In this document: piece by piece, positions 5,521 through 23,640 of the stretch
How positions within the stretch are numbered: position 1 is the stretch's first letter
How the letters are laid out: each line of letters starts with the position of its first letter
DNA from: an archaeon
GTDB lineage: Archaea > Asgardarchaeota > Thorarchaeia > Thorarchaeales > Thorarchaeaceae
Direction: 5' to 3'
Length of the DNA: 32,000 bases
Assembly (NCBI GenBank): GCA_024275415.1
Contig: JAJRZD010000031.1
Span: 11,176-43,175 of the forward strand
The notes under the pieces: generated by a model
Seen by the model: the letters and a program-made list of their open reading frames with translations, nothing else
Databases searched by the model: none
What the model was told of the DNA's origin: nothing
Translations under genes and position numbers: made by a program

Positions 5521-5712
5521 ATTGGACAACATTGGGTCTAATCGTGTTTCTCTCAGAGAGCAACACAGGAACCAACTCCGTGAATGACAAAGCATGAATG
5601 CTACCGTGAATCATCCCACGTTTTGCCTCCCTCTCTGAATTGAACTCGACATGCTATTATATGGGTGCTGCACATAGTCGTGAGTCAATCTCTGATGAGA
5701 GGAGCGAGAAAA

Positions 5713-7059
5713 ATGACAGATGAAGAACTTACTCCTGACACTGCATTATCCATGGCAAAGAATGAGCCTGAACCAATGCGATGGCTATATGTCTTCGTCA
5801 TAGGACTTGGATTCTTTACAACAGGAGTCAGCTGGAGTGTGTACAACAGCTTCCTGCCTGCTGATTTCCTGCCATTGTTCATCCAAGGCGACCTTCAGAA
5901 CACGATTATTGGAATCATAATGGTGCTTGATAATGTTCTTGCATTATTACTGCAGCCATACATCGGTGCCCGTTCTGACCGCCAGCGCTCGAAGCTCGGT
6001 CGAAGGATGCCGTACATTCTCATTGGCACTCCCGCCGCAGCTGTCTTCTTCGCGTTGATCGCACTTGGTTGGGCTGCCTTCAACTTTTGGTTGATGTTCC
6101 TATTTATCACTATATTCAACGTGTCAATGGCATACTATAGGGCTCCAGTGGTTGCACTTATGCCTGATGTTGTCCCCTCTGAGCATCGTAGCAAAGCCAA
6201 TGGTGTGATCAATCTCATGGGAGGAATTGGAGCCATCTACGCCTTCGCTATTGCTTCCCAAATATACAAGATCAAAGACCCCGGCCTAGCAGCATTATTT
6301 GCCACCACGACCACTAGGATCGGACCTATCCTTGCTTTCCTGACCACCTCTATCATTATGGTTGTCGCAACCATCATCCTTTTCGTCGTGATCAAGGAAC
6401 CCGAGGTGCCTCCTGTTGATCCTGATAAGCCAGAGGAGGTTGGCATAATCGATGCAATACGACAGGTTTCTTTCAGCTCTGATAAGAGTGCCATCGCCCT
6501 GTTGCTAGCCATACTCTCGTGGTTCTTTGGCTACAACGCCATCGAAACGTGGTATACAAAGTATGGTAGTGAGGTTCTTGGTTTCGCCACGGCTGATTCT
6601 GCTTTCCAACTAACCGCATTTGCATTATCCTTCGTGGTATTTGCAATTCCTGCAGGGTTGATTGCTGGTAAAATAGGGCGCAAAAAGACTATCATGGTGG
6701 GACTTGTCATAATGATTACTGGGATCGCTCTCCTTATCGTTGTGATAGATTATTATCTCATGATGGTGATCCTAATCATCGCCGGTTTGGGTTGGAGCTT
6801 AACAAACGTTAATTCAATCGTCATGCTGTGGGAACAATTTGGAAAGGCGCGATTGGGGGCTGGAACTGGTCTTTACTATCTATTCAGCATGGGCGCAGCG
6901 ATTTTTGGACCGGTCATCTCAGGTGTCATCTTCGACCTCACGACAATCGAGATTCTGTTTCCGCTCTCGATTACTTTTCTGATAATAGCACTCATTTTCA
7001 TGTTGATGGTGCGGACTGGCGAAGTTGGAGATGAGGTAATCTCTGAATATGCATCATAG
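5713..7059 (+). CDS. MFS transporter, MalT/sucrose-symporter-like
   Basis: GARSDRQRSKLGRRMPYILIG motif A, about 12 TMs, second repeat KIGRKKTI. ATG5713 with GGAG SD preferred. Confidence 0.9.
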   Translation: MTDEELTPDTALSMAKNEPEPMRWLYVFVIGLGFFTTGVSWSVYNSFLPADFLPLFIQGDLQNTIIGIIMVLDNVLALLLQPYIGARSDRQRSKLGRRMPYILIGTPAAAVFFALIALGWAAFNFWLMFLFITIFNVSMAYYRAPVVALMPDVVPSEHRSKANGVINLMGGIGAIYAFAIASQIYKIKDPGLAALFATTTTRIGPILAFLTTSIIMVVATIILFVVIKEPEVPPVDPDKPEEVGIIDAIRQVSFSSDKSAIALLLAILSWFFGYNAIETWYTKYGSEVLGFATADSAFQLTAFALSFVVFAIPAGLIAGKIGRKKTIMVGLVIMITGIALLIVVIDYYLMMVILIIAGLGWSLTNVNSIVMLWEQFGKARLGAGTGLYYLFSMGAAIFGPVISGVIFDLTTIEILFPLSITFLIIALIFMLMVRTGEVGDEVISEYAS

Positions 7060-7132: not shown

Positions 7133-8287
7133 TTAGGTACAACCTTCTCCAAGTGCAGAATCGTCCTCCATGACCACTTCAACCTGTTTCGGTTCGATGA
7201 GAGCACACTCCACATTTCGATTGGTGATGCTGAATATCAGAAATGAGAGAAACGCCATAAAAGCTGCAAAGAAGATGACCGTGTAATAGTTTCCACCAAG
7301 GGTAAATATGATTGCTGCGTAGATTGGTCCAACCACTCCCGATATCGCTAGCATGGACTGCAACAACCCCGAAGCGGTTGCTCGTTCTGTATTCCTTTCC
7401 GTGACGTATTTCAGAGCACCAACGTAGAGGCAAGCCCATGCAAAGCCAAGCAGAACCTGTGCAGTGAATATCTCTATGATGTTCTGTGCCATCCCAATCC
7501 AGACGAAAGTCATCGAGGATGCCACAAGACCTGTTGCGACTAACTTCGAGCAATCGAATCTATCGGTAAGGCCAAGCATGAAGATGACCTGGGCCAATGA
7601 GTTGGTTGCTTGAACCAGTCCGATAATGCCCAAATCGCCACCGAGGTTTGAAAGGATCAACGGCCAGTAAGTCCAGACTGCAAAAGCGCTACTGTGACGG
7701 ATAAGGACTGCAAGGTATACAGGATAGTTCCTCTTGAAGGTTTCAATAGGAAAGAGTGGGACTTTGATCGAGTGTACTTCTATCTTTGGCAGAGTAAAAG
7801 CACTGGCAAACGCAAACAGAAAGAAGAGTGCTGAAAACAGAAATGCGTAATATATGTTGAATCCTGCGGCATATCCTGCCAGTACTGTGCCAAATCCCCA
7901 TCCGAGCGCCCCGAAGGAGGCAAACCTCCCCATCTTCATTTTGGACTCGTAGGCAAAAGCTGCAAGCGCACCGGGATATATCCCGATGCAAAAGCCATTC
8001 AGCACTCGGACGATGAACAATATCTCTAGCGTACTTGAGAGTACAATCAATCCAAAACTCAGTGTCGATAGCAGAATGCCAATGCGGAGGATGATGCGTC
8101 GTCCATAGATGTCCCCAGCTCTGCCGAAGATATAGCTTGAGAAGAAGGATGCGGTAGCATAAGCAGAAACCATGAACGCGATGTAGAGGTCATCTGCTCC
8201 CAGATGATCTCTTGCAAGTATCGGGATATACGTGATTGCAGAGAGTATCGCTGCACCTGCCATCATCTGTATTATTTCTGTTCTCAC
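7133..8287 (-). CDS. MFS transporter
   Basis: FGRAGDIYGRRIIL motif A, about 12 hydrophobic segments. Confidence 0.9.
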   Translation of the reverse strand: MRTEIIQMMAGAAILSAITYIPILARDHLGADDLYIAFMVSAYATASFFSSYIFGRAGDIYGRRIILRIGILLSTLSFGLIVLSSTLEILFIVRVLNGFCIGIYPGALAAFAYESKMKMGRFASFGALGWGFGTVLAGYAAGFNIYYAFLFSALFFLFAFASAFTLPKIEVHSIKVPLFPIETFKRNYPVYLAVLIRHSSAFAVWTYWPLILSNLGGDLGIIGLVQATNSLAQVIFMLGLTDRFDCSKLVATGLVASSMTFVWIGMAQNIIEIFTAQVLLGFAWACLYVGALKYVTERNTERATASGLLQSMLAISGVVGPIYAAIIFTLGGNYYTVIFFAAFMAFLSFLIFSITNRNVECALIEPKQVEVVMEDDSALGEGCT

Positions 8288-15422: not shown

Positions 15423-16040
15423 ATGACCGATATCACATTATGGAGCGAAACGAAAAAGGGTGGGAAAGTAGTTGAGCGTGTTGTGCCTGGGACCAGCACC
15501 ATCAATCTTAGCGATAGACGCATCGCGACCACTGACCTTTCGCCACTAAAGGACTGTCCCAATCTGGAGGTACTGATTCTTTCAGGAAACGAGTTGCAGA
15601 GTATTGACCTCTCGCCCCTGTCCCACTGTTCGAACTTGCTCGAACTATCACTTGGTAGCAACGAGATGGGATCCATAGACCTGACACCACTGGAGAACTG
15701 CAAGAACCTCATGCATCTTGACATCTCTTTCAACCGGTTAACGGAACTAGACCTCACGCCTCTTGCCTCATGCCCCGAGCTGAAAGCGCTTCATCTCTAT
15801 CAGAACAAGCTCGGATCCATAGACCTCACGCCTCTCAAGAAGTGCAAGAAGCTTCGTAATATCACTCTAGAGAAGAACGAGTTCAAGAGTATCGACATCT
15901 CTGCTCTTTTCTCATGCCCCCGTCTTGTCAAGATTGGCTTCGATTCTGACACAATACTGACTGCAGCAGCGAAGAACAAAGAAAAGACAAAGCTGCCGAT
16001 TGGTTTCAAACCTATCCGTTCTAGGATAAAATGGACCTGA
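15423..16040 (+). CDS. Leucine-rich-repeat protein (24-aa units)
   Basis: Five full repeats CxxLxxLxLxxNxLxxIDLxPLxx plus partial flanking units. DNA repeat ATCCATAGACCT at 15671 and 15815 (144 nt apart). Confidence 0.92.
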   Translation: MTDITLWSETKKGGKVVERVVPGTSTINLSDRRIATTDLSPLKDCPNLEVLILSGNELQSIDLSPLSHCSNLLELSLGSNEMGSIDLTPLENCKNLMHLDISFNRLTELDLTPLASCPELKALHLYQNKLGSIDLTPLKKCKKLRNITLEKNEFKSIDISALFSCPRLVKIGFDSDTILTAAAKNKEKTKLPIGFKPIRSRIKWT

Positions 16041-16095: not shown

Positions 16096-16506
16096 TTATT
16101 TCAGTGGGACGTATGCAGAACTCTTTGTTGCGCCAATCCCCGGGTTGCCATGACTGACACGCCTAGTAGTTATTGAGAACTCGCCTAAGACATGACCGAT
16201 CATCTGGGGAAGTATTTTGACCCGTTGAAAGTCTTTGCCATTATGGACTGCGATGGTAAGATCGACCATCTCAGGAAGAATGACCATATCACGACAATGA
16301 GTCCTGACCACAACATCCTTGCCTTTTCTCTGGGCTTTGCGGGCATTTCGCAACTTGACGAGGAGTTTCTTTTGTCTAGAAGGTAATCCTCTCTTGAGCG
16401 TTCTTCTTCTGCGTGTAGGTAGAAGTTCGATGAGCGAGTCCATATTCATCCTGACAAGCTCTGAGAGTGGAACTCCTCTGTACATTGGTTCGCCTTTCCG
16501 TGACAT
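16096..16506 (-). CDS. rps19: 30S ribosomal protein uS19 (archaeal S19P)
   Basis: YRGVPLSEL, RTLKRGL, VRTHCRDMVILPEMV, HNGK, MIGHVLGEFSIT, HGNPGIGAT.SS.YVPLK. AGGTGA SD. Confidence 0.97.
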   Translation of the reverse strand: MSRKGEPMYRGVPLSELVRMNMDSLIELLPTRRRRTLKRGLPSRQKKLLVKLRNARKAQRKGKDVVVRTHCRDMVILPEMVDLTIAVHNGKDFQRVKILPQMIGHVLGEFSITTRRVSHGNPGIGATKSSAYVPLK

Positions 16507-16650: not shown

Positions 16651-17208
16651 TCAGAACATCCTAGGTTGTTTTTGGGGTCTGTCAATGGGATTACCTTTCT
16701 CGTCGAGCAATCCTGCCTTCTCCATAGCATCCTTCACCCATGTCAGCGTACTCGCCACGGTAGGGTCACGGATTATTGCAAGTCTTGCAAGTTCGATAGA
16801 CTCCTCATAGTTCTCCAGCTCGTAGTTTATCTCAGCTTTGTGAAGGATGGCAAGTGTGAAACGCTTCTCGATGGCAAGCACTCGGTCAAACAGCTCCAGT
16901 GCCTCTTCCGCTCTTCCGAGGTCTCGTAAGCAGACTGCCTTGTTGAACAGGGGGACGGGGTCTTTCGGATTCACTTCCGCAGCTCTATCCAGATACGAGA
17001 TGGCCTTCTCGACTACCACAGGATTTTTCTCGCCATTGCCAAGTGATTGGATAATCGCTACACCCAATGTGGTAAGTGCATTTGTATGGTCTGGATGATT
17101 CTCGATTATCTCCTGAAGTTTCATCATAGCCAAGTCTATGTCTCCATCTGCCAGTAATCGGGCAGCCTCATTGTATTCCTTGTTTTTTGAACGACCAAAC
17201 AGTGGCAT
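16651..17208 (-). CDS. TPR-repeat protein
   Basis: PVPLFNKAVCLRDLGRAEEALELFDRVL-type TPR motifs. Confidence 0.85.
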   Translation of the reverse strand: MPLFGRSKNKEYNEAARLLADGDIDLAMMKLQEIIENHPDHTNALTTLGVAIIQSLGNGEKNPVVVEKAISYLDRAAEVNPKDPVPLFNKAVCLRDLGRAEEALELFDRVLAIEKRFTLAILHKAEINYELENYEESIELARLAIIRDPTVASTLTWVKDAMEKAGLLDEKGNPIDRPQKQPRMF

Positions 17209-17288: not shown

Positions 17289-18647
17289 ATGGGCAGGCTG
17301 TTTGGGACGAACGGTGTACGCGGAACGATTAACGATGAGCTAACAGTCGATATGATGCTTGACCTCGGCAGGGCGATTGGTTCCGTCCTAGGGCCCGGGA
17401 AGATAGCTATTTCAACCGACTCTAGGATGGGTGGCGAGATGTTCAAGCAGTCCGTTATCTCAGGACTACTATCGACCGGTTGTGATGTGGTCGACATTGG
17501 CCCATGTCCAACTCCTTGCCTTCAGTTCAACACCCGTGAGCTCGGATGCATCGGAGGTGTGATGATCACTGCATCACATAATCCCCCCGAATTCAATGGG
17601 ATCAAGGTGATGGGCTCTGATGGCATCGAGGTGACTCGTGAAGTAGAGTCCGTGATTGAGGATGTTTATTTCTCGCGCGAGTTCAAAGTGGCCCCTTGGG
17701 ATGAGATTGGAACGCAATATTCCGATGACCTTGCGATTCGCAGGTACATTGATGGCATCAAGAAACATGTGGATGTGGGCGCGATACGCAAGAAAGCCCC
17801 CAAGGTCGTAGTGGATGGTGCTAATAGTGTGGGTGCATTGGCCACCCCACTCCTGCTTCGTGAACTCGGATGCAAAGTCATAACAATCAACTCGCAGATG
17901 GATGGTATGTTTCCCGGAAGGAATCCTGAACCTACTCCCGAAAACATCGTTGACCTGTCCAAGACTGTTATCTCTGTTGGTGCTGATATCGGCATTGCCC
18001 ATGACGGTGATGCAGATCGTGCAACATTTGTCGATGAGAATGGTGCGATTCTTTGGGGCGACCAGTCCTTTGCCATCATTGCCCGTCACGTGCTTTGGAA
18101 GAAGCCTGATTCCACTCTGGTCACTCCCGTAAGCAGCGGTCGGCTTATTGAGGATATTGTCAAGGAATCAAATGCTCGGGTTGACTGGACAAAGGTTGGT
18201 AGCGTGATTGTATCACATCGCGTTGTGGAGATTGGTGCAGAGCTTGGTGGTGAAGAGAATGGTGGTGTGTTTTATCCTGATCATATTGCGGTACGCGATG
18301 GAGCTATGACTGCTGCACAGATGATTGATATAATGGTTTCAAACAACTCCTCACTCTCCGGACTTGTGAAGAGCTTGCCCCAGTATTATAGTACAAAGAC
18401 AAAAGTACCTGTCCCTCCCGATAAGAAGGACGCTCTCCTTGAAACCCTTCTTGAATTGACAAAGGATGAGAACCGGATAACGATGGATGGCGTCAAACTG
18501 ACGTACGCTGAAGGTTGGATTCTTATTCGTCCTTCGGGCACTGAGCCTCTCTGGAGATGTTTTGCCGAAGCGAAGACCCAAGAAATTGCCGATACCTTAT
18601 GTGAACGGGGAGTGAACCTGATCCGAGATGCTGCTGCAAAGACCTAG
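17289..18647 (+). CDS. Alpha-D-phosphohexomutase (phosphomannomutase/phosphoglucomutase or phosphoglucosamine mutase)
   Basis: LFGTNGVRG, catalytic TASHNP, metal loop DGDADR, GEENGG, RPSGTEP. Substrate not resolvable by eye. Confidence 0.93.
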   Translation: MGRLFGTNGVRGTINDELTVDMMLDLGRAIGSVLGPGKIAISTDSRMGGEMFKQSVISGLLSTGCDVVDIGPCPTPCLQFNTRELGCIGGVMITASHNPPEFNGIKVMGSDGIEVTREVESVIEDVYFSREFKVAPWDEIGTQYSDDLAIRRYIDGIKKHVDVGAIRKKAPKVVVDGANSVGALATPLLLRELGCKVITINSQMDGMFPGRNPEPTPENIVDLSKTVISVGADIGIAHDGDADRATFVDENGAILWGDQSFAIIARHVLWKKPDSTLVTPVSSGRLIEDIVKESNARVDWTKVGSVIVSHRVVEIGAELGGEENGGVFYPDHIAVRDGAMTAAQMIDIMVSNNSSLSGLVKSLPQYYSTKTKVPVPPDKKDALLETLLELTKDENRITMDGVKLTYAEGWILIRPSGTEPLWRCFAEAKTQEIADTLCERGVNLIRDAAAKT

Positions 18648-18943
18648 CTTGTTCTTCGAAGCCTCCTGATTTGTATCATCACATCCACTGCCATGATGAG
18701 AACGGGTATCAACACGATAAAGTTCAGATTTTCAATGATGACTAGCAAGTGAAGTCCTGTTGGGGTCCAGAGAAATGCAAGCATGCCAATGACCCATATG
18801 ACCAACAGTGAGGTTGAGATACTCGCACATACATCGCTAAGATCTTTGTCCCGTATTCCTCTTTCTTTCACTAGTAGCCATGCGATGAGGATTATCCCTG
18901 TCCATGATGCTAATATTCCCAAGTAGTTGAATGCCTGCATCAA
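18644..18943 (-). CDS. Small 3-TM membrane protein, unknown function
   Basis: Three hydrophobic segments. Fills the gap between the neighbouring genes. Confidence 0.6.
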   Translation of the reverse strand: MMQAFNYLGILASWTGIILIAWLLVKERGIRDKDLSDVCASISTSLLVIWVIGMLAFLWTPTGLHLLVIIENLNFIVLIPVLIMAVDVMIQIRRLRRTS

Positions 18944-19077
18944 GTGCTATCCCCGCACATCTCACTCGTTCATCAAGTATTCATTATGCATTCTATGAAT
19001 ATGAATCTTGGCAATCTCATCCGTCACTTTTTCTAATTGATACGTGAGATGCTGTAGAATTAGTAAATGTTGGTAGA

Positions 19078-19097
19078 AGGGATCCTGCTGGATCCCT
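19078..19097 (-). terminator. Hairpin downstream of the DPM2-like gene
   Basis: AGGGATCC-tgct-GGATCCCT. No clear U-tract. Confidence 0.45.
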
Positions 19098-19132
19098 ACC
19101 CCGGTTGAATGAGTTGTTGCTGAGAAGAGGAC

Positions 19133-19459
19133 TTACTGGGATTCTTCCTTCTCAACTTCCTTGTCCATATCCGAACTCTCGCTTTCGAAATCGAAATCTT
19201 CGAGTGGTTCAGGTGCTGGAGTTGTAAGCATAGTCCAACCAATCCACATGGCTATGACCATGATCAATACTGCAGCAAGCCAGACTGGCAGGATGACAAG
19301 CCATTTCCAATCGGGAGCGAACAGCCATTCCCAACCCTCTGGGGCGAGGCCGGCGAGATCTGGGAATATCTGGATTAAGAGCAGCCCCCATGTATAATAG
19401 ATAAGCACGAGAAGCGCAAAGACGAATATGAGCGCACCAATTATTTTTTCCTTGCCCAT
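19133..19459 (-). CDS. Two-TM membrane protein resembling eukaryotic DPM2
   Basis: IIGALIFVFALLVLIYYTW...FAPDWKWLVILPV...IGWTML, followed by an acidic tail. Similarity judged by eye against the remembered DPM2 sequence. Confidence 0.7.
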   Translation of the reverse strand: MGKEKIIGALIFVFALLVLIYYTWGLLLIQIFPDLAGLAPEGWEWLFAPDWKWLVILPVWLAAVLIMVIAMWIGWTMLTTPAPEPLEDFDFESESSDMDKEVEKEESQ

Positions 19460-19772
19460 TTTGCAAAACCTCTTTCAAATAGTGACAATTTTAGATAGTC
19501 ACAACTGGTTTGTACTAGTACAGGTATTCCCTGTCGTCTCAGATAAAAGGCTTGCGTAATACCTCGATTTCATTTCCCTGCGGTCATAGTAAAGGTATGG
19601 TATGAATTGATTTGTTTGATTCAATCCTTAATACTGAGTAAATTACTTGAATCGAGTCCTCCTTTGACTTGTATCAGGTGATACAAGTCGTAAAAGAGCT
19701 GCTTGCGTATTGCTTATAATGGGGGCATATCTGTTTCACGGAATAAATAGCAGCCAATTTGGTGGTGGATGT

Positions 19773-20570
19773 TTGAAGATTATCGTACCAGTCAAACAAG
19801 TTCCGGAGGTTGCCGAGGTAAAGGTCAACCCCGAAACAGGCACGCTGATCCGCGACGGTGTTCCCAGTATCCTGAACCCGTTCGATGAGCTTGCTGTTGA
19901 AGAGGCCATAAGAATCAAAGAGGCACATGGCGGTGATGATAGTGAGGTCACCGTAATCACCATGGGCCCCCCTCAAGCAGTTGATGTCCTGTACAAAGCG
20001 ATGGCAATGGGTGCTGACAAGGCCGTCCATATGACAGACCGCATTTTTGCAGGAGCCGACACTTGGGTTACCGCATTGACTCTTGCAGAACAGATACGGA
20101 AGATGGAGTTCGACCTCATTATTTGTGGAAAACAGGCAATCGATGGTGATACAGCACAGGTTGGCCCTGAGATTGCAGAGATCCTACGCATCCCTCAGAT
20201 ATGCTATGTCCGCAAGGTCGAGATATCTGAGGATGGCAAGTTTGTGACAGCCCACAGGGAAACGGACGAGGGCTATGAGGTTGTCAAGGCAAAACTCCCA
20301 GTCCTGCTAACCGCAACCAAAGGACTGAATGAGCCTCGCCTTCCTAATATCATGGGCATCATGAAAGCCAAGAAGAAGCCCCTCGAGGTCGTCGATGCAG
20401 AAAAGCTCGGAGTATCCGAAGACCGCCTCGGGTTGAAGGGCTCGCCCACTACTGTCAGGAAAGTGTTCCCACCTGAGCAGAGAGCAGGTGGTATTAAGAT
20501 CGATGGCGAGAATCCCAAGGAAGCCGCAAGGCAACTGGTGGAATTCCTCGCAAAGAAGGGGGTAATCTGA
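19773..20570 (+). CDS. etfB: Electron transfer flavoprotein beta subunit (bifurcating-type motifs)
   Basis: IIVPVKQVP, LNPFDELAVEEA, GKQAIDGDTAQVGP, LNEPR, GSPT.V. Start TTG19773 after GGTGGTGG SD. Confidence 0.93.
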   Translation: MKIIVPVKQVPEVAEVKVNPETGTLIRDGVPSILNPFDELAVEEAIRIKEAHGGDDSEVTVITMGPPQAVDVLYKAMAMGADKAVHMTDRIFAGADTWVTALTLAEQIRKMEFDLIICGKQAIDGDTAQVGPEIAEILRIPQICYVRKVEISEDGKFVTAHRETDEGYEVVKAKLPVLLTATKGLNEPRLPNIMGIMKAKKKPLEVVDAEKLGVSEDRLGLKGSPTTVRKVFPPEQRAGGIKIDGENPKEAARQLVEFLAKKGVI

Positions 20571-20571
20571 G

Positions 20572-21771
20572 ATGGGACTCATCTATGACAAGGACAAGTG
20601 TACTGGCTGCATGCTCTGTATTAAGGCCTGCAACTTCGCTGCCATCGAAAAGGATGGTGACAAGGTAAAGTTCGATTTTGACAAATGTGTCCTCTGCGGC
20701 TCTTGTGAGGAAGTCTGTCCTGCTGACGCCATCTTGATCGAACGACAGACGGTCGATAAAGAGGCAATCGCCCAGTACAATGATGTCTGGGTCGTCACTG
20801 AGATCCATGATGGACGACTCCGGAGCGTATCGTACGAACTTGTTACCAAAGCAAGAGACCTTGCTGATAAGCTCGGAGAGAAAGTCGTTGCACTCCTTCT
20901 CGGACATGAGGTGGAGAGTCTGGCAGAATCACTCATTCATCAGGGCGCTGACAAAGTGCTCGTCGTGGATGACAAGATTCTTGCGGACTATACCACTGAT
21001 GCCTTTACCATTGCAGTCACTTCACTAATCACCTCTCGAAAGCCTGCTATCGTTCTTTACGGTGCAACATCCAACGGTAGGGATCTTGCCCCGCGCGTAG
21101 CAGCCCGTCTTGCACTCGGACTCACCGCTGATTGTACCGGTCTGGATATCGATGATGAACGTCAGCTCGTGCAGACTCGCCCGGCATTCGGTGGTAACAT
21201 CATGGCAGAGATCCTCTGCCCCTACACAAGACCTCAGATGGCCACCGTGCGCCCAAACGTCTTCAAGCCCACTGAGCCCGACACCTCACGGACAGGCGAG
21301 ATCGAGAAGGTCGATTTCAGCATAAGCCCTGTTCAGGTACGAACCCGTGTCCTAGAGAAGGTCTCTGAGGTCGTGGAAGGCATGAAGTCCGTGGAAGAAG
21401 CCGACATCATCGTCTGTAGCGGACGCGGGATCAAAGACCCCTCGAATCTGGAACTTCCCAAAGAACTGGCAAAACTCCTTGATGCTGCCATCGGCGGCTC
21501 TCGCCCCATCGTTGACCTCGGCTGGCTCCCTCCAACCCAGCAGGTGGGACAGTCCGGACGCACCGTTTCTCCCAAGCTCTATTTCGCTCTTGGAATATCA
21601 GGCGCAATACAACACTGTGCTGGTATGTCATCAAGCGAGATCATCGTTGCCATCAACAAGGACGAGGAGGCACCGATATTCGAGCTTGCTGACTTTGGTA
21701 TCGTCGGTGATATCTTTGCAATAGTTCCAGAGATCATCGAAGAGATCAAGCGAGTCAAGGCAGAAAGATAA
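20572..21771 (+). CDS. etfA: Electron transfer flavoprotein alpha subunit with N-terminal 2x[4Fe-4S] ferredoxin domain
   Basis: CTGCMLCIKAC and CVLCGSCEEVCP motifs, then GLTADCT, TRPAFGGN, QVGQSGRTV.PKLY, GISGAIQH.AGM. Confidence 0.95.
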   Translation: MGLIYDKDKCTGCMLCIKACNFAAIEKDGDKVKFDFDKCVLCGSCEEVCPADAILIERQTVDKEAIAQYNDVWVVTEIHDGRLRSVSYELVTKARDLADKLGEKVVALLLGHEVESLAESLIHQGADKVLVVDDKILADYTTDAFTIAVTSLITSRKPAIVLYGATSNGRDLAPRVAARLALGLTADCTGLDIDDERQLVQTRPAFGGNIMAEILCPYTRPQMATVRPNVFKPTEPDTSRTGEIEKVDFSISPVQVRTRVLEKVSEVVEGMKSVEEADIIVCSGRGIKDPSNLELPKELAKLLDAAIGGSRPIVDLGWLPPTQQVGQSGRTVSPKLYFALGISGAIQHCAGMSSSEIIVAINKDEEAPIFELADFGIVGDIFAIVPEIIEEIKRVKAER

Positions 21772-21906: not shown

Positions 21907-23640
21907 TTGAATGTGAAGTCACGGCGGCGTCTTTCAGAAGGCAAAATGAGATTGAACATCCACGATTCGCCGAGCGATGCTTTAAGACGGATGTATAATT
22001 TTCGGAAGGTCTATGACACAAAGCCAATTGATTTGAGAAAGCGGACTGGATGTAAGAGAGTACGAATGTTCTATCCACGAATCCGCGGAAACACAATCAA
22101 GAGCATTGAACATCTCATGAAAGTTATAAGTAGTGATTATCCTGGTATAAGGAACATCGATACCTTTTCTGAATTGATGTCAGACGCAAGTACTCATTTT
22201 TCTCTTATTGACCGACTTGAGGGAAAGACAGAATTGAAACAGGGGGAGTTCGCTCAGATTATCAAAGACATCGACAAACCCCGCTCTACTCTAGCTGCTT
22301 GGACATTCAAAGAACGCCCTCCAAAGATATATCTAATTCTTGAAGGCACACTTCCAAAATCTGAAGCACAGAAGTTATTCAAGGCTATTACCAAAAGGAA
22401 TGATGGACTGAATCAGACTGAAGCGATCCAATCACGACTTGATTCATATTATGCGGCGAACGAATACCGAAATTCCAAGAACTATCCAAAGGACATGGAG
22501 ATGATCTGCAAATACTTCTCATTCTGGGATGCAATACAACAAGGGATGCCACTCTCTGTAGCTGCGCGGAATATCGGGATATGTTTCAGTGATGGTAAGC
22601 GATGGGTTGAGGGACATGTACCTTGGATGATGAAACTCGCGAGATCTATCCCTTCCAGACCCCCCCGTGAAGGCAATCTCTGGCTTCCACTCACCACAGG
22701 CGAGAAGATGAATCCGAAAGATTTCATCGAAGTCCCCCTGAAAATCACGAGTCTACAAGATATCAGGGATGTCTTATCTCAATTAAAACCAAGAAACGAC
22801 TTACAAATGAACGAATGGCGTGAACGATTCGGGGAAAGTGATATTCTTGATTCATTCATGTATTCGTTAGGCTCGCTGATATCTGATGGCAAGACCCAGT
22901 TCGCCAGCGATGCATGTTTAGCTGGCTCTCGTCCTGCCATTGGATTAGGAAAAACATACGACTGGAGCGTTGAGTATGGCGAGGGAACCTGTTACCATTA
23001 TGGCAAGATTGGCATCACTATGAGTAGGATTAAGGATCAAGATGAGGTTTCTGACAAGTCCTTTCCCTCGGATGGTCAATACAGATGGCAGGGCCAGCGG
23101 AGCACATTATTGACTTGGCTTCGTCGAACGGGCTTAGGCTTCAACGATACGGAGTCAAAGACATACCATCCACTTAATGCTGACTGGATACTGAAAATGC
23201 CAGAAAGAGAACGAGTGTCTTTTCTCCAAGGTGTTTGTGATGGGGATGGATGTGTATCTCTCGCATCACAATATCTAAGCATAGGAACTTGCAGTAACTC
23301 GGAGTTCTATCGACGACTGCTACATTCCTTGGGTATGACATCTCACCTTGGCGATGGTGCTGTGGTTGTAAGCGCTCACGAATCTTTGCAACGGGCACGG
23401 GATTTGAGAGTCTTTAGATATGCAAGGAATAGGCTTGCAAAGCTTGAGAAGTTAGGTGCTATGATTGATTCCTTTGATATAAATCGGGAGATGGATTGTA
23501 GTATGAGAGAGTACGCAAAGAGCCTCAGAAAACATAGAGAATCATGGGGCGCAATCTCTGAGCACATATTCGATAGATTTGGATACACCTGGCCATACTA
23601 TACAATTAAGAGAAGACTATGCAGGATAGACAATCAATAA
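21907..23640 (+). CDS. Free-standing LAGLIDADG (two-motif) endonuclease-like protein with additional HTH-like regions
   Basis: Motif 1 FMYSLGSLISDG (about 22855-22890) and motif 2 FLQGVCDGDG (23221-23250). HTH-like LSVAARNIGICFSDGKRW and C-terminal SWGAISEHIFDRFG. TTG start with AGGAG SD. Confidence 0.8.
   Translation: MNVKSRRRLSEGKMRLNIHDSPSDALRRMYNFRKVYDTKPIDLRKRTGCKRVRMFYPRIRGNTIKSIEHLMKVISSDYPGIRNIDTFSELMSDASTHFSLIDRLEGKTELKQGEFAQIIKDIDKPRSTLAAWTFKERPPKIYLILEGTLPKSEAQKLFKAITKRNDGLNQTEAIQSRLDSYYAANEYRNSKNYPKDMEMICKYFSFWDAIQQGMPLSVAARNIGICFSDGKRWVEGHVPWMMKLARSIPSRPPREGNLWLPLTTGEKMNPKDFIEVPLKITSLQDIRDVLSQLKPRNDLQMNEWRERFGESDILDSFMYSLGSLISDGKTQFASDACLAGSRPAIGLGKTYDWSVEYGEGTCYHYGKIGITMSRIKDQDEVSDKSFPSDGQYRWQGQRSTLLTWLRRTGLGFNDTESKTYHPLNADWILKMPERERVSFLQGVCDGDGCVSLASQYLSIGTCSNSEFYRRLLHSLGMTSHLGDGAVVVSAHESLQRARDLRVFRYARNRLAKLEKLGAMIDSFDINREMDCSMREYAKSLRKHRESWGAISEHIFDRFGYTWPYYTIKRRLCRIDNQ

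Follow-up and report, generated by a model that had tools for sequence, protein, structure and literature searches.

Two small eukaryotic membrane proteins, DPM2 and PIG-P, are the closest described counterparts of the protein discussed here. DPM2 is the regulatory subunit of the eukaryotic type-II dolichol-phosphate-mannose (Dol-P-mannose) synthase and also takes part in the glycosylphosphatidylinositol (GPI)-N-acetylglucosamine (GlcNAc) transferase, of which PIG-P (Gpi19) is an essential small subunit. Defects in the Dol-P-mannose and GPI pathways lead to congenital glycosylation disorders, and to our knowledge the exact roles of DPM2 and PIG-P are unclear even in human cells. Here we analyze a relative of both from an Asgard archaeon. 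Its gene lies in a 32,000-nucleotide stretch of DNA (the window) from a 3.5-Mb, 127-contig Thorarchaeote assembly that is 92.9% complete, and encodes a protein of 108 amino acids (aa). From the sequence comparisons described below, we consider it very likely that this protein is truly homologous to the DPM2/PIG-P family.

Parts of this relationship have been described. Gandini et al. (2017) reported a resemblance to human DPM2 for helices 1 and 3 of the Pyrococcus furiosus type-III Dol-P-mannose synthase (PDB 5MLZ), and a topological match of its two helix pairs to DPM2 and DPM3. In 5MLZ, an archaeal enzyme, the hairpins are fused to the catalytic domain, whereas the Thorarchaeote hairpin is encoded by a separate gene. 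The relatives of 5MLZ in the Thorarchaeote are its glycosyltransferase family 2 (GT2) enzymes, and a search of the PDB with the profile of the small-protein family gave no sequence match to 5MLZ. More recently, Kay et al. (Nature 2025) placed a duplication that gave rise to DPM2 and PIGP before the last eukaryotic common ancestor (LECA) and assigned the family an archaeal origin; their supplementary table holds a PF07297 tree with an ‘Asgard’ sister lineage and the LECA nodes DPM2 and PIGP. The kinship of DPM2 and PIG-P to Asgard proteins is therefore already published, as a line in a large phylogenomic table, and the same holds for the idea of a prokaryotic DPM2 relative, which an earlier model-generated annotation of the window (the sequence-only reading) had put forward. 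What is added here is this particular member, the spread of the family beyond Asgard archaea, a conserved tail motif and a recurrent, non-universal proximity to sugar-activation genes. A free-standing, near-universal and mostly single-copy relative with a sharply conserved peptide would offer a simple system in which to study the role of the hairpin before the endoplasmic reticulum (ER) existed and the enzyme that it served.

Kinship with DPM2 and PIG-P

The open reading frame (ORF) of the small protein was found where the sequence-only reading had placed it (Table 1). The gene is real and conserved, with 162 close homologues, and the nearest homologues of the protein are Thorarchaeota records. 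An AlphaFold2 (AF2) model (mean pLDDT 82) contains two long helices, at residues 3-31 and 51-79. With its Lys-rich N-terminus, the protein is predicted to form a hairpin of two transmembrane (TM) helices with both ends in the cytoplasm. Across 42 Thorarchaeotal orthologues, Y21 and W24 of helix 1 are invariant, and Y22 and T23 are conserved in at least 90%. The segment I69-F91 is almost wholly invariant across Thorarchaeota, giving the tail consensus WIGWTM-TTP-PEP-LE-DFDF, and nearly all columns of the hallmark peptide within it (W72-F91) are invariant there; the consensus of this peptide in the wider family is WIGWTM-TTPPP-P-[IL]-E. Members of the archaeal family, which have 80-130 residues, share a common plan. 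A short basic N-terminus (M-x-K-D/E-K/Q-x-x-G) leads into helix 1, which an outer loop of varying length separates from helix 2; the latter ends in WIGWTM and is followed by the stretch TTPPP-x-P-I/L-E and an acidic tail.

The motifs on which the sequence-only reading based its comparison with DPM2 are all present, though two of the quoted spacings were off by one. In the 108-aa protein, IIG (residues 6-8) and YYTW (21-24) are separated by 12 residues, F47-x-P49 and L57-P58 by seven, and TML occupies residues 76-78. Mammalian DPM2 database sequences read VVG-x12-YYT, F-x-P-x6-IP and VML, so that TM helix 1 aligns to DPM2 without a gap and TM helix 2 with one gap. The human DPM2 sequence quoted by the same reading proved accurate; a 44-residue stretch of the DPM2 N-terminus was 100% identical to mammalian DPM2 records. 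Similar to DPM2, the archaeal protein is a small two-helix hairpin with a conserved Gly at the start of helix 1 followed 12 residues on by YYT, a Pro segment before helix 2 and V/T-M-L at the end of helix 2. DPM2 differs in having 84 aa and an end that is short and basic. The outer loop of the archaeal protein is longer, and the protein carries the TTP-PEP-LE-DFDF peptide and acidic tail, to which mammalian DPM2 has no counterpart. PIG-P resembles the archaeal protein in being a hairpin with a conserved cytoplasmic stretch after helix 2, and matches to the PIG-P Pfam model extend into the archaeal tail. Human PIG-P presumably has a similar stretch (...G-x-N-M-M-S-T-S-P-L-D...) after helix 2.

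The strongest evidence for homology came from profile-profile comparison. An alignment of 83 archaeal sequences was compared by hhalign with a DPM2 profile that is shallow, being built from 12 mammalian database sequences only (the 44-residue stretch was not part of it). The match had a probability of 97.4% and a score of 63.9 over 74 columns, covered DPM2 residues 4-78 and placed helix 1 so that its conserved Gly and its YYT line up with those of DPM2; a Thorarchaeota-only profile gave 89.7%. In controls, the reversed DPM2 alignment scored 14.0, 60 full column shuffles of DPM2 had a mean of 11.1 and a maximum of 18.6, and 60 shuffles confined within helix, loop and tail had a mean of 15.5 (standard deviation 3.6) and a maximum of 27.0. 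Generic TM-helix composition, which the sequence-only reading had named as the explanation that could undo its claim, fails to explain the DPM2 match because the score of 63.9 stands against a shuffle maximum of 27.0. That reading had also pointed to the DPM2 model of Pfam (PF07297). This model was indeed the top match of the 108-aa protein, over profile positions 2-71 of 75, but at 19.3 bits (E = 0.0014) it stayed below the cut-off of 27.3; in a six-frame search of the genome, it gave 17.7 bits at the small gene. The PIG-P model (PF08510) matched at 15.1 bits (E = 0.021; cut-off 39.3), with protein residues 12-89 aligned to profile positions 5-80, and so enters the conserved tail.

We also considered that the relationship might not be real, and that the similarity might stem from generic TM composition or from a holin-like small membrane protein. 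Pairwise BLASTP against DPM2 is weak, covering helix 1 only with 9/28 identities (E = 0.002, single comparison), and the Pfam scores fall below their cut-offs. Moreover, Phage_holin_3_6 (PF07332), an actinobacterial two-helix family, matches 45 of the 83 full-length wider relatives, though more weakly than the eukaryotic models do (best E 2.4e-6). On the 108-aa protein itself, this model reached 17.4 bits, below its cut-off of 28.4, and no phage or lysis context was seen. The small gene is not a phage holin, since it is near-universal, mostly single-copy and chromosomal among housekeeping genes. The absence of any relationship is close to refuted and, in our view, extremely improbable: none of the 120 composition-preserving shuffles exceeded 27, the alignment spans the whole of DPM2 with Gly and YYT in register, and 91 of 201 Asgard genomes match the PIG-P model at E <= 0.01, compared with none of 14 control genomes.

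Structure searches yielded generic helical hairpins only, and are uninformative for a shape as simple as this. Foldseek found no match to the AF2 model in the PDB, and VIA-align against ~48,000 chains returned generic hairpins with Z <= 5. A shape search of the ESM Atlas gave unnamed Bathyarchaeota clusters and one fungal PIG-P cluster, the latter at a TM-score of 0.53, a value too low to carry weight in the case of a hairpin. Sequence searches of the PDB with the Thorarchaeotal and wider-family profiles found no DPM2, PIG-P or Dol-P-mannose synthase chain. The best profile match there (E = 0.03) was to the first two helices of the human DHHC20 palmitoyltransferase together with ‘W-x-Y-W-x-T-I-F-T-S-P’, which may be chance or a shared type of hairpin.

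Which of the two eukaryotic proteins the family resembles more depends on the members compared, where the PIG-P side of the comparison consists of Pfam model matches. The 42 Thorarchaeotal orthologues matched DPM2 in 26 cases (best E 4.5e-7), PIG-P in 10 and anything else in one. An exhaustive profile search gave 202 cluster representatives of the archaeal family, and among the 83 full-length wider relatives PIG-P was matched by 44 (best E 2.3e-10) and DPM2 by 31 (best E 1.7e-8). DPM2 is therefore the better Pfam match within Thorarchaeota, and PIG-P outside them. The PIG-P cut-off is passed in only one of the 201 Asgard genomes (40.4 bits), and some mammalian DPM2 records carry both the DPM2 and the PIG-P Pfam labels. 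Read most simply, the archaeal family looks like the undivided form from before the split of DPM2 and PIG-P. The homology claimed by the sequence-only reading thus stands, while its assignment to DPM2 specifically does not.

Spread of the family and its gene neighborhoods

The family profile found the gene in 182 of 201 sampled Asgard genomes, nearly always in one copy, and in 82 of the 85 high-quality ones. It was also present in 187 of 201 sampled genomes (classes not named) of the phylum that holds Bathyarchaeia, which would be Thermoproteota in GTDB; a minority of these have two to four copies. Archaeal amoA was absent from five genomes of this sample and equally from the control genomes, and is thus no guide to their classes. 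A pattern scan of one genome per prokaryotic species returned at least 405 relatives, the best 80 of which came from Thorarchaeota, Hermod-, Hel-, Atabey- and Jordarchaeia and many Bathyarchaeia. As a core small membrane protein, the family extends well beyond Asgard to a much larger share of the archaea. The sequence-only reading had suggested a potential eukaryotic signature protein; an Asgard-only signature protein it is not, since it is near-universal in the phylum of Bathyarchaeia as well. This spread agrees with the proteoarchaeal origin inferred for Dpm1 by Lombard (2016).

Two further observations concern Loki-type genomes. In many Loki-type members, the six-frame match is interrupted by one in-frame stop close to its 3′ end (e.g. 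G073:C85:10864-11217), which may mark an intron or a match that runs beyond the true stop codon. Proteins of ~260 aa with weak PIG-P matches were set aside, since the one inspected was a multi-helix membrane protein that lacked the hallmark.

Gene neighborhoods were compared using a simple longest-ORF gene caller and BLAST clusters, and the counts are approximate. A sugar-activation gene lies within two genes of the small gene in ~24 of 41 Asgard loci, representing 8 of ~17 families. Thorarchaeota and three more Asgard families have a phosphohexomutase adjacent to the small gene. Two Asgard families other than Thorarchaeota carry a co-directional run made up of a phosphohexomutase, a GlmS-like double-SIS protein and the small gene. 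In Loki-type genomes, the upstream genes, on the opposite strand, encode a phosphomannose-isomerase-type cupin and a ribokinase-family kinase, and three further Asgard families have a GDP-mannose-pyrophosphorylase-like nucleotidyltransferase, an epimerase/dehydratase and a UDP-GlcNAc 3-dehydrogenase-like gene. The best NCBIfam match of the neighboring nucleotidyltransferase was mannose-1-phosphate guanylyltransferase (287 bits, below the cut-off of 440). In Bathyarchaeia, a nucleotidyltransferase is found downstream of the small gene in 7/33 loci. Immediate neighbors are varied in 27 further genomes of the same phylum, and ~7/54 of them belong to sugar activation or glycosylation. Taken together, genes of sugar metabolism recur beside the small gene, probably more often than background, without the association being strict.

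Proposed function and competing readings

We propose that the small protein serves as a two-helix, non-catalytic accessory subunit to a lipid-directed glycosyltransferase that faces the cytoplasm, and we give this proposal about an even chance of being right. Similar to DPM2 and PIG-P, the protein would have no catalytic activity of its own. The enzyme that it serves would move a sugar from a nucleotide sugar to a membrane lipid, either dolichyl phosphate or an inositol lipid, and the hairpin would pack on the membrane part of that enzyme or on the lipid acceptor. The TTP-PEP-LE-DFDF peptide and the acidic tail may hold or position a cytoplasmic partner. DPM3, in which two helices are followed by a cytoplasmic tail that tethers the soluble DPM1, provides an analogy only, and no sequence relationship to it was seen. 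The recurring sugar-activation neighbors lend the proposal some indirect support. Also in its favor, the genome encodes GT2 enzymes similar to the Pyrococcus Dol-P-mannose synthase.

A number of observations weigh against this proposal. The 108-aa protein and nearly all of its relatives fall below the Pfam cut-offs, and the holin model also matches over half of the relatives, more weakly. No partner enzyme emerged from the searches made here. In the Thorarchaeote genome, at its completeness of 92.9%, the DPM3 model (PF08285) found nothing convincing (best E = 0.18, inside a 444-aa frame), the PIGA-domain model gave no match at E <= 1, and the best match to the GPI2/PIG-C model (14.6 bits) lay in a frame with a stop. 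Part of the Asgard synteny may be inherited rather than functional, since the gene is often at the edge of a ribosomal-protein cluster (uS19, uL22 and uS3), which is nearby in 21 of the 41 Asgard loci. In Bathyarchaeia, 30 of 33 loci (including L081 and L084) have the small gene directly downstream of, and co-directional with, S-adenosylhomocysteine (SAH) hydrolase, which has no tie to glycosylation; an amidohydrolase often lies one gene further upstream of the hydrolase. Lastly, 4 of the 150 representatives listed (P0185, P0206, P0229 and P0251) are fused at the C-terminus, after the acidic tail, to HHH_5 or DUF4332 (148 bits), which is predicted by no glycosylation model.

The fusions lead to a different explanation, in which the protein is a general membrane tether with no role in glycosylation. 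Its peptide would recruit an HHH/DUF4332 protein, the ribosome or a metabolic enzyme, and eukaryotes would have reused the hairpin later. In one Thorarchaeote (CP070761, L006), whose setting is unlike that of other Thorarchaeota, a stand-alone DUF4332 gene (5557-5916) lies directly upstream on the same strand; together with the fusions, this suggests a general docking or linking role for the tail. The fixed position behind SAH hydrolase in Bathyarchaeia and the nearby ribosomal-protein genes in Asgard archaea would also fit a tether, as would the fact that conservation is highest in the tail, which DPM2 lacks. On the other hand, the fusions are rare, different sugar-activation genes recur beside the small gene in independent arrangements, and both eukaryotic descendants serve lipid-directed glycosyltransferases, for which inheritance is the simplest explanation. 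We therefore view a general tether as possible but doubtful.

The neighboring phosphohexomutase, described as a phosphomannomutase-family gene in the sequence-only reading, has all four PGM/PMM domains, but a phosphomannomutase role is only putative. Its best-scoring model is the NCBIfam model of archaeal GlmM (TIGR03990; 549 bits, above the equivalog cut-off of 439), and its catalytic loops appear intact by eye (Ser TASHNP, metal DGDADR, sugar GEENGG and phosphate RPSGTEP). The genome has three phosphohexomutase paralogues in all, and one of the other two also passes TIGR03990 (521 bits). The GlmM label does not fix the substrate of the mutase because this second paralogue passes the same model, and a supply of mannose-1-phosphate, as the sequence-only reading had suggested, is possible. 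Where the mutase pairs with a GlmS-like gene, a UDP-GlcNAc route seems likelier than one to GDP-mannose, and either would feed a lipid-directed transferase. The mutase is best taken as a context gene, and its functional tie to the small protein is putative.

One specific form of the subunit model is that the protein is a DPM2 orthologue that stabilizes or activates a Dol-P-mannose synthase, with the adjacent mutase making mannose-1-phosphate for GDP-mannose. This is in keeping with the preference of the Thorarchaeotal orthologues for the DPM2 model, the identical spacing from Gly to YYT in helix 1, the DPM2-like sequence that Gandini et al. (2017) noted in the membrane helices of the archaeal enzyme, and the mannose-type cupin and nucleotidyltransferase found beside the gene elsewhere. 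The genome also encodes candidate enzymes. It has four GT2 genes, and two of them encode relatives of the Pyrococcus Dol-P-mannose synthase. The first (253 residues, E = 8.8e-17) has a membrane segment at its C-terminus; in the second (242 residues, E = 3.3e-11), no hydrophobic C-terminal segment is evident by eye. Nevertheless, at E <= 1e-20 the 253-residue enzyme is found in 4 and the 242-residue enzyme in 1 of 17 Thorarchaeotal genomes, which also counts against our broader proposal: both fit poorly as the partner because they are patchy while the small protein is near-universal. DPM3, the direct partner of DPM2, was not found in the genome, the wider family fits PIG-P better, and the split of DPM2 and PIGP is dated to the eukaryotic stem. 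The mutase, which passes the archaeal GlmM cut-off and has a GlmS-like pairing in two families, points to UDP-GlcNAc rather than GDP-mannose. Based on these observations, an orthologue of DPM2 proper appears unlikely. The search for DPM1, DPM3 and PIG-A homologues that the sequence-only reading had in view recovered two GT2 enzymes resembling Dol-P-mannose synthase, but neither DPM3 nor the PIG-A-specific domain.

Co-folding of the small protein with the Pyrococcus-type GT2 returned ‘no answer’ (score 0.00), which is evidence neither way. The 242-residue enzyme was dropped as a candidate partner, having no orthologues in 16 of 17 related Thorarchaeotal genomes.

A second specific form of the subunit model is a PIG-P-like subunit of a UDP-GlcNAc transferase, which would be either a forerunner of the GPI-GlcNAc transferase acting on an inositol phospholipid or an enzyme of the first GlcNAc steps on dolichyl phosphate. 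Most members outside Thorarchaeota score best in Pfam with PIG-P, one of them above the cut-off, and the PIG-P matches continue beyond helix 2 to reach the conserved tail. Four Asgard families have GlmM and a GlmS-like gene in an adjacent or co-directional arrangement, and the Thorarchaeote genome holds two GlcNAc-1-phosphate-transferase-family genes and three PIG-L/LmbE-family deacetylases, one of them beside a GlmM paralogue. Against this, PIG-L-family enzymes have many unrelated roles, and none of the 100-odd loci inspected had a glycosyltransferase family 4 (GT4) gene or a PIG-L gene next to the small gene. The setting also differs from that of PIG-P in eukaryotes: the PIG-A-specific domain and PIG-C were not found in the genome, where PIG-H and PIG-Q were not searched for and generic GT4 genes were not examined, and the PIG-P cut-off is passed in a single Asgard genome. 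We consider this version improbable as well.

A bolder version of our proposal, to which we would assign only a small chance, takes the protein as the ancestral type of DPM2 and PIG-P before they divided and as a core subunit, across almost all Asgard archaea and the sister phylum, of an undescribed membrane complex. Such a complex would be a candidate UDP-GlcNAc- or GDP-mannose-dependent transferase acting on dolichyl phosphate or an inositol lipid, and the tail would be the docking site of the catalytic subunit. If true, multi-subunit lipid-sugar transferases of the ER type predate eukaryotes.

The surroundings of the other genes named above are also of note. The second GlmM-type paralogue (contig C106:4644-6018) lies ~1.2 kb from a PIG-L/LmbE deacetylase (7238-7561), and the two further PIG-L/LmbE deacetylases are on contig C9, 4-11 kb from a GT2 gene. 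These settings of GlmM and PIG-L/LmbE could belong to a GlcNAc-lipid or a thiol-sugar pathway.

The Thorarchaeotal gene block

The features of the small gene and its neighbors in the window are collected in Table 1. A look-up of sequencing runs, RNA included, gave none for this region.

Table 1. Small gene, parts of its protein and neighboring genes, in window coordinates.
Feature	Position	Strand	Remarks
Gene of the 108-aa DPM2/PIG-P-like two-helix membrane protein (P0001)	19133-19459	minus	ORF, stop codon included
Helix 1, residues 3-31	19367-19453	minus	AF2 model; G8 and Y21-Y22-T23-W24 aligned to DPM2 G10 and Y23-Y24-T25
Helix 2, residues 51-79	19223-19309	minus	AF2 and hhalign; invariant P49 ahead, P58 inside; aligned to DPM2 ~47-74
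Hallmark W72-F91 (WIGWTMLTTPAPEPLEDFDF), end of helix 2 and predicted cytoplasmic juxtamembrane peptide	19187-19246	minus	Invariant-column analysis
Acidic C-terminal tail, residues 92-108	19136-19186	minus	Sequence variable, always Glu/Asp-rich; helix modelled, pLDDT ~70-79
Upstream region	19460-19500	minus	By eye: AGAGG, Shine-Dalgarno-like, 8-12 nt before ATG; TATA-like A/T-rich ATCTAAAAT ~25-35 nt before ATG
Alpha-D-phosphohexomutase, 452 aa (P0002)	17289-18647	plus	Pfam PGM/PMM domains I-IV; convergent with small gene
Hydrophobic ORF, 99 aa (P0003)	18644-18943	minus	About three hydrophobic segments; between mutase and small gene, downstream of small gene
TPR protein	16651-17208	minus	Conserved Thorarchaeotal block
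Ribosomal protein uS19	16096-16506	minus	Conserved Thorarchaeotal block
Electron-transfer flavoprotein (ETF) beta	19710-20570	plus	Divergent neighbor; Pfam of L007 equivalents
ETF alpha subunit fused to ferredoxin domain	20572-21771	plus	Divergent neighbor; Pfam of L007 equivalents

In Thorarchaeota, the block has the order ETF-alpha, ETF-beta, small gene, phosphohexomutase, TPR protein and uS19, with the small gene divergent from the ETF pair and convergent with the mutase. It is kept in the window and at loci L007, L012-L014, L016 and L017, while L015 keeps it without the mutase. The ETF genes are members of this synteny block with no evident functional link to the small gene. As the sequence-only reading had estimated, the mutase is about 0.5 kb away, the two stop codons being 486 bp apart. 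The hydrophobic ORF P0003, which lies between them, has a conserved counterpart at the equivalent place in the nearest relative, L052 (40% identity and E = 2.6e-22 by tblastn). It was absent from the other Thorarchaeotal loci examined, where the small gene and the mutase are ~80 bp apart.

Some further features of the window were noted. The window has uS19 as a single gene, separated from uL22 and uS3, whereas in Loki-type genomes uS19, uL22 and uS3 are contiguous beside the small gene. Next to the uS19 gene, positions 15423-16040 (plus strand) encode a 205-aa protein made up nearly entirely of leucine-rich repeats (LSPL..C.NL..L.L..N). On the other side of the block, a 577-aa ORF (21907-23640, plus strand) has a LAGLIDADG-like ‘LQGVCDGDGCV’ by eye and may be free-standing and homing-endonuclease-like, or derived from an intein; it coincides with a dip in G+C content (0.43 vs ~0.47).

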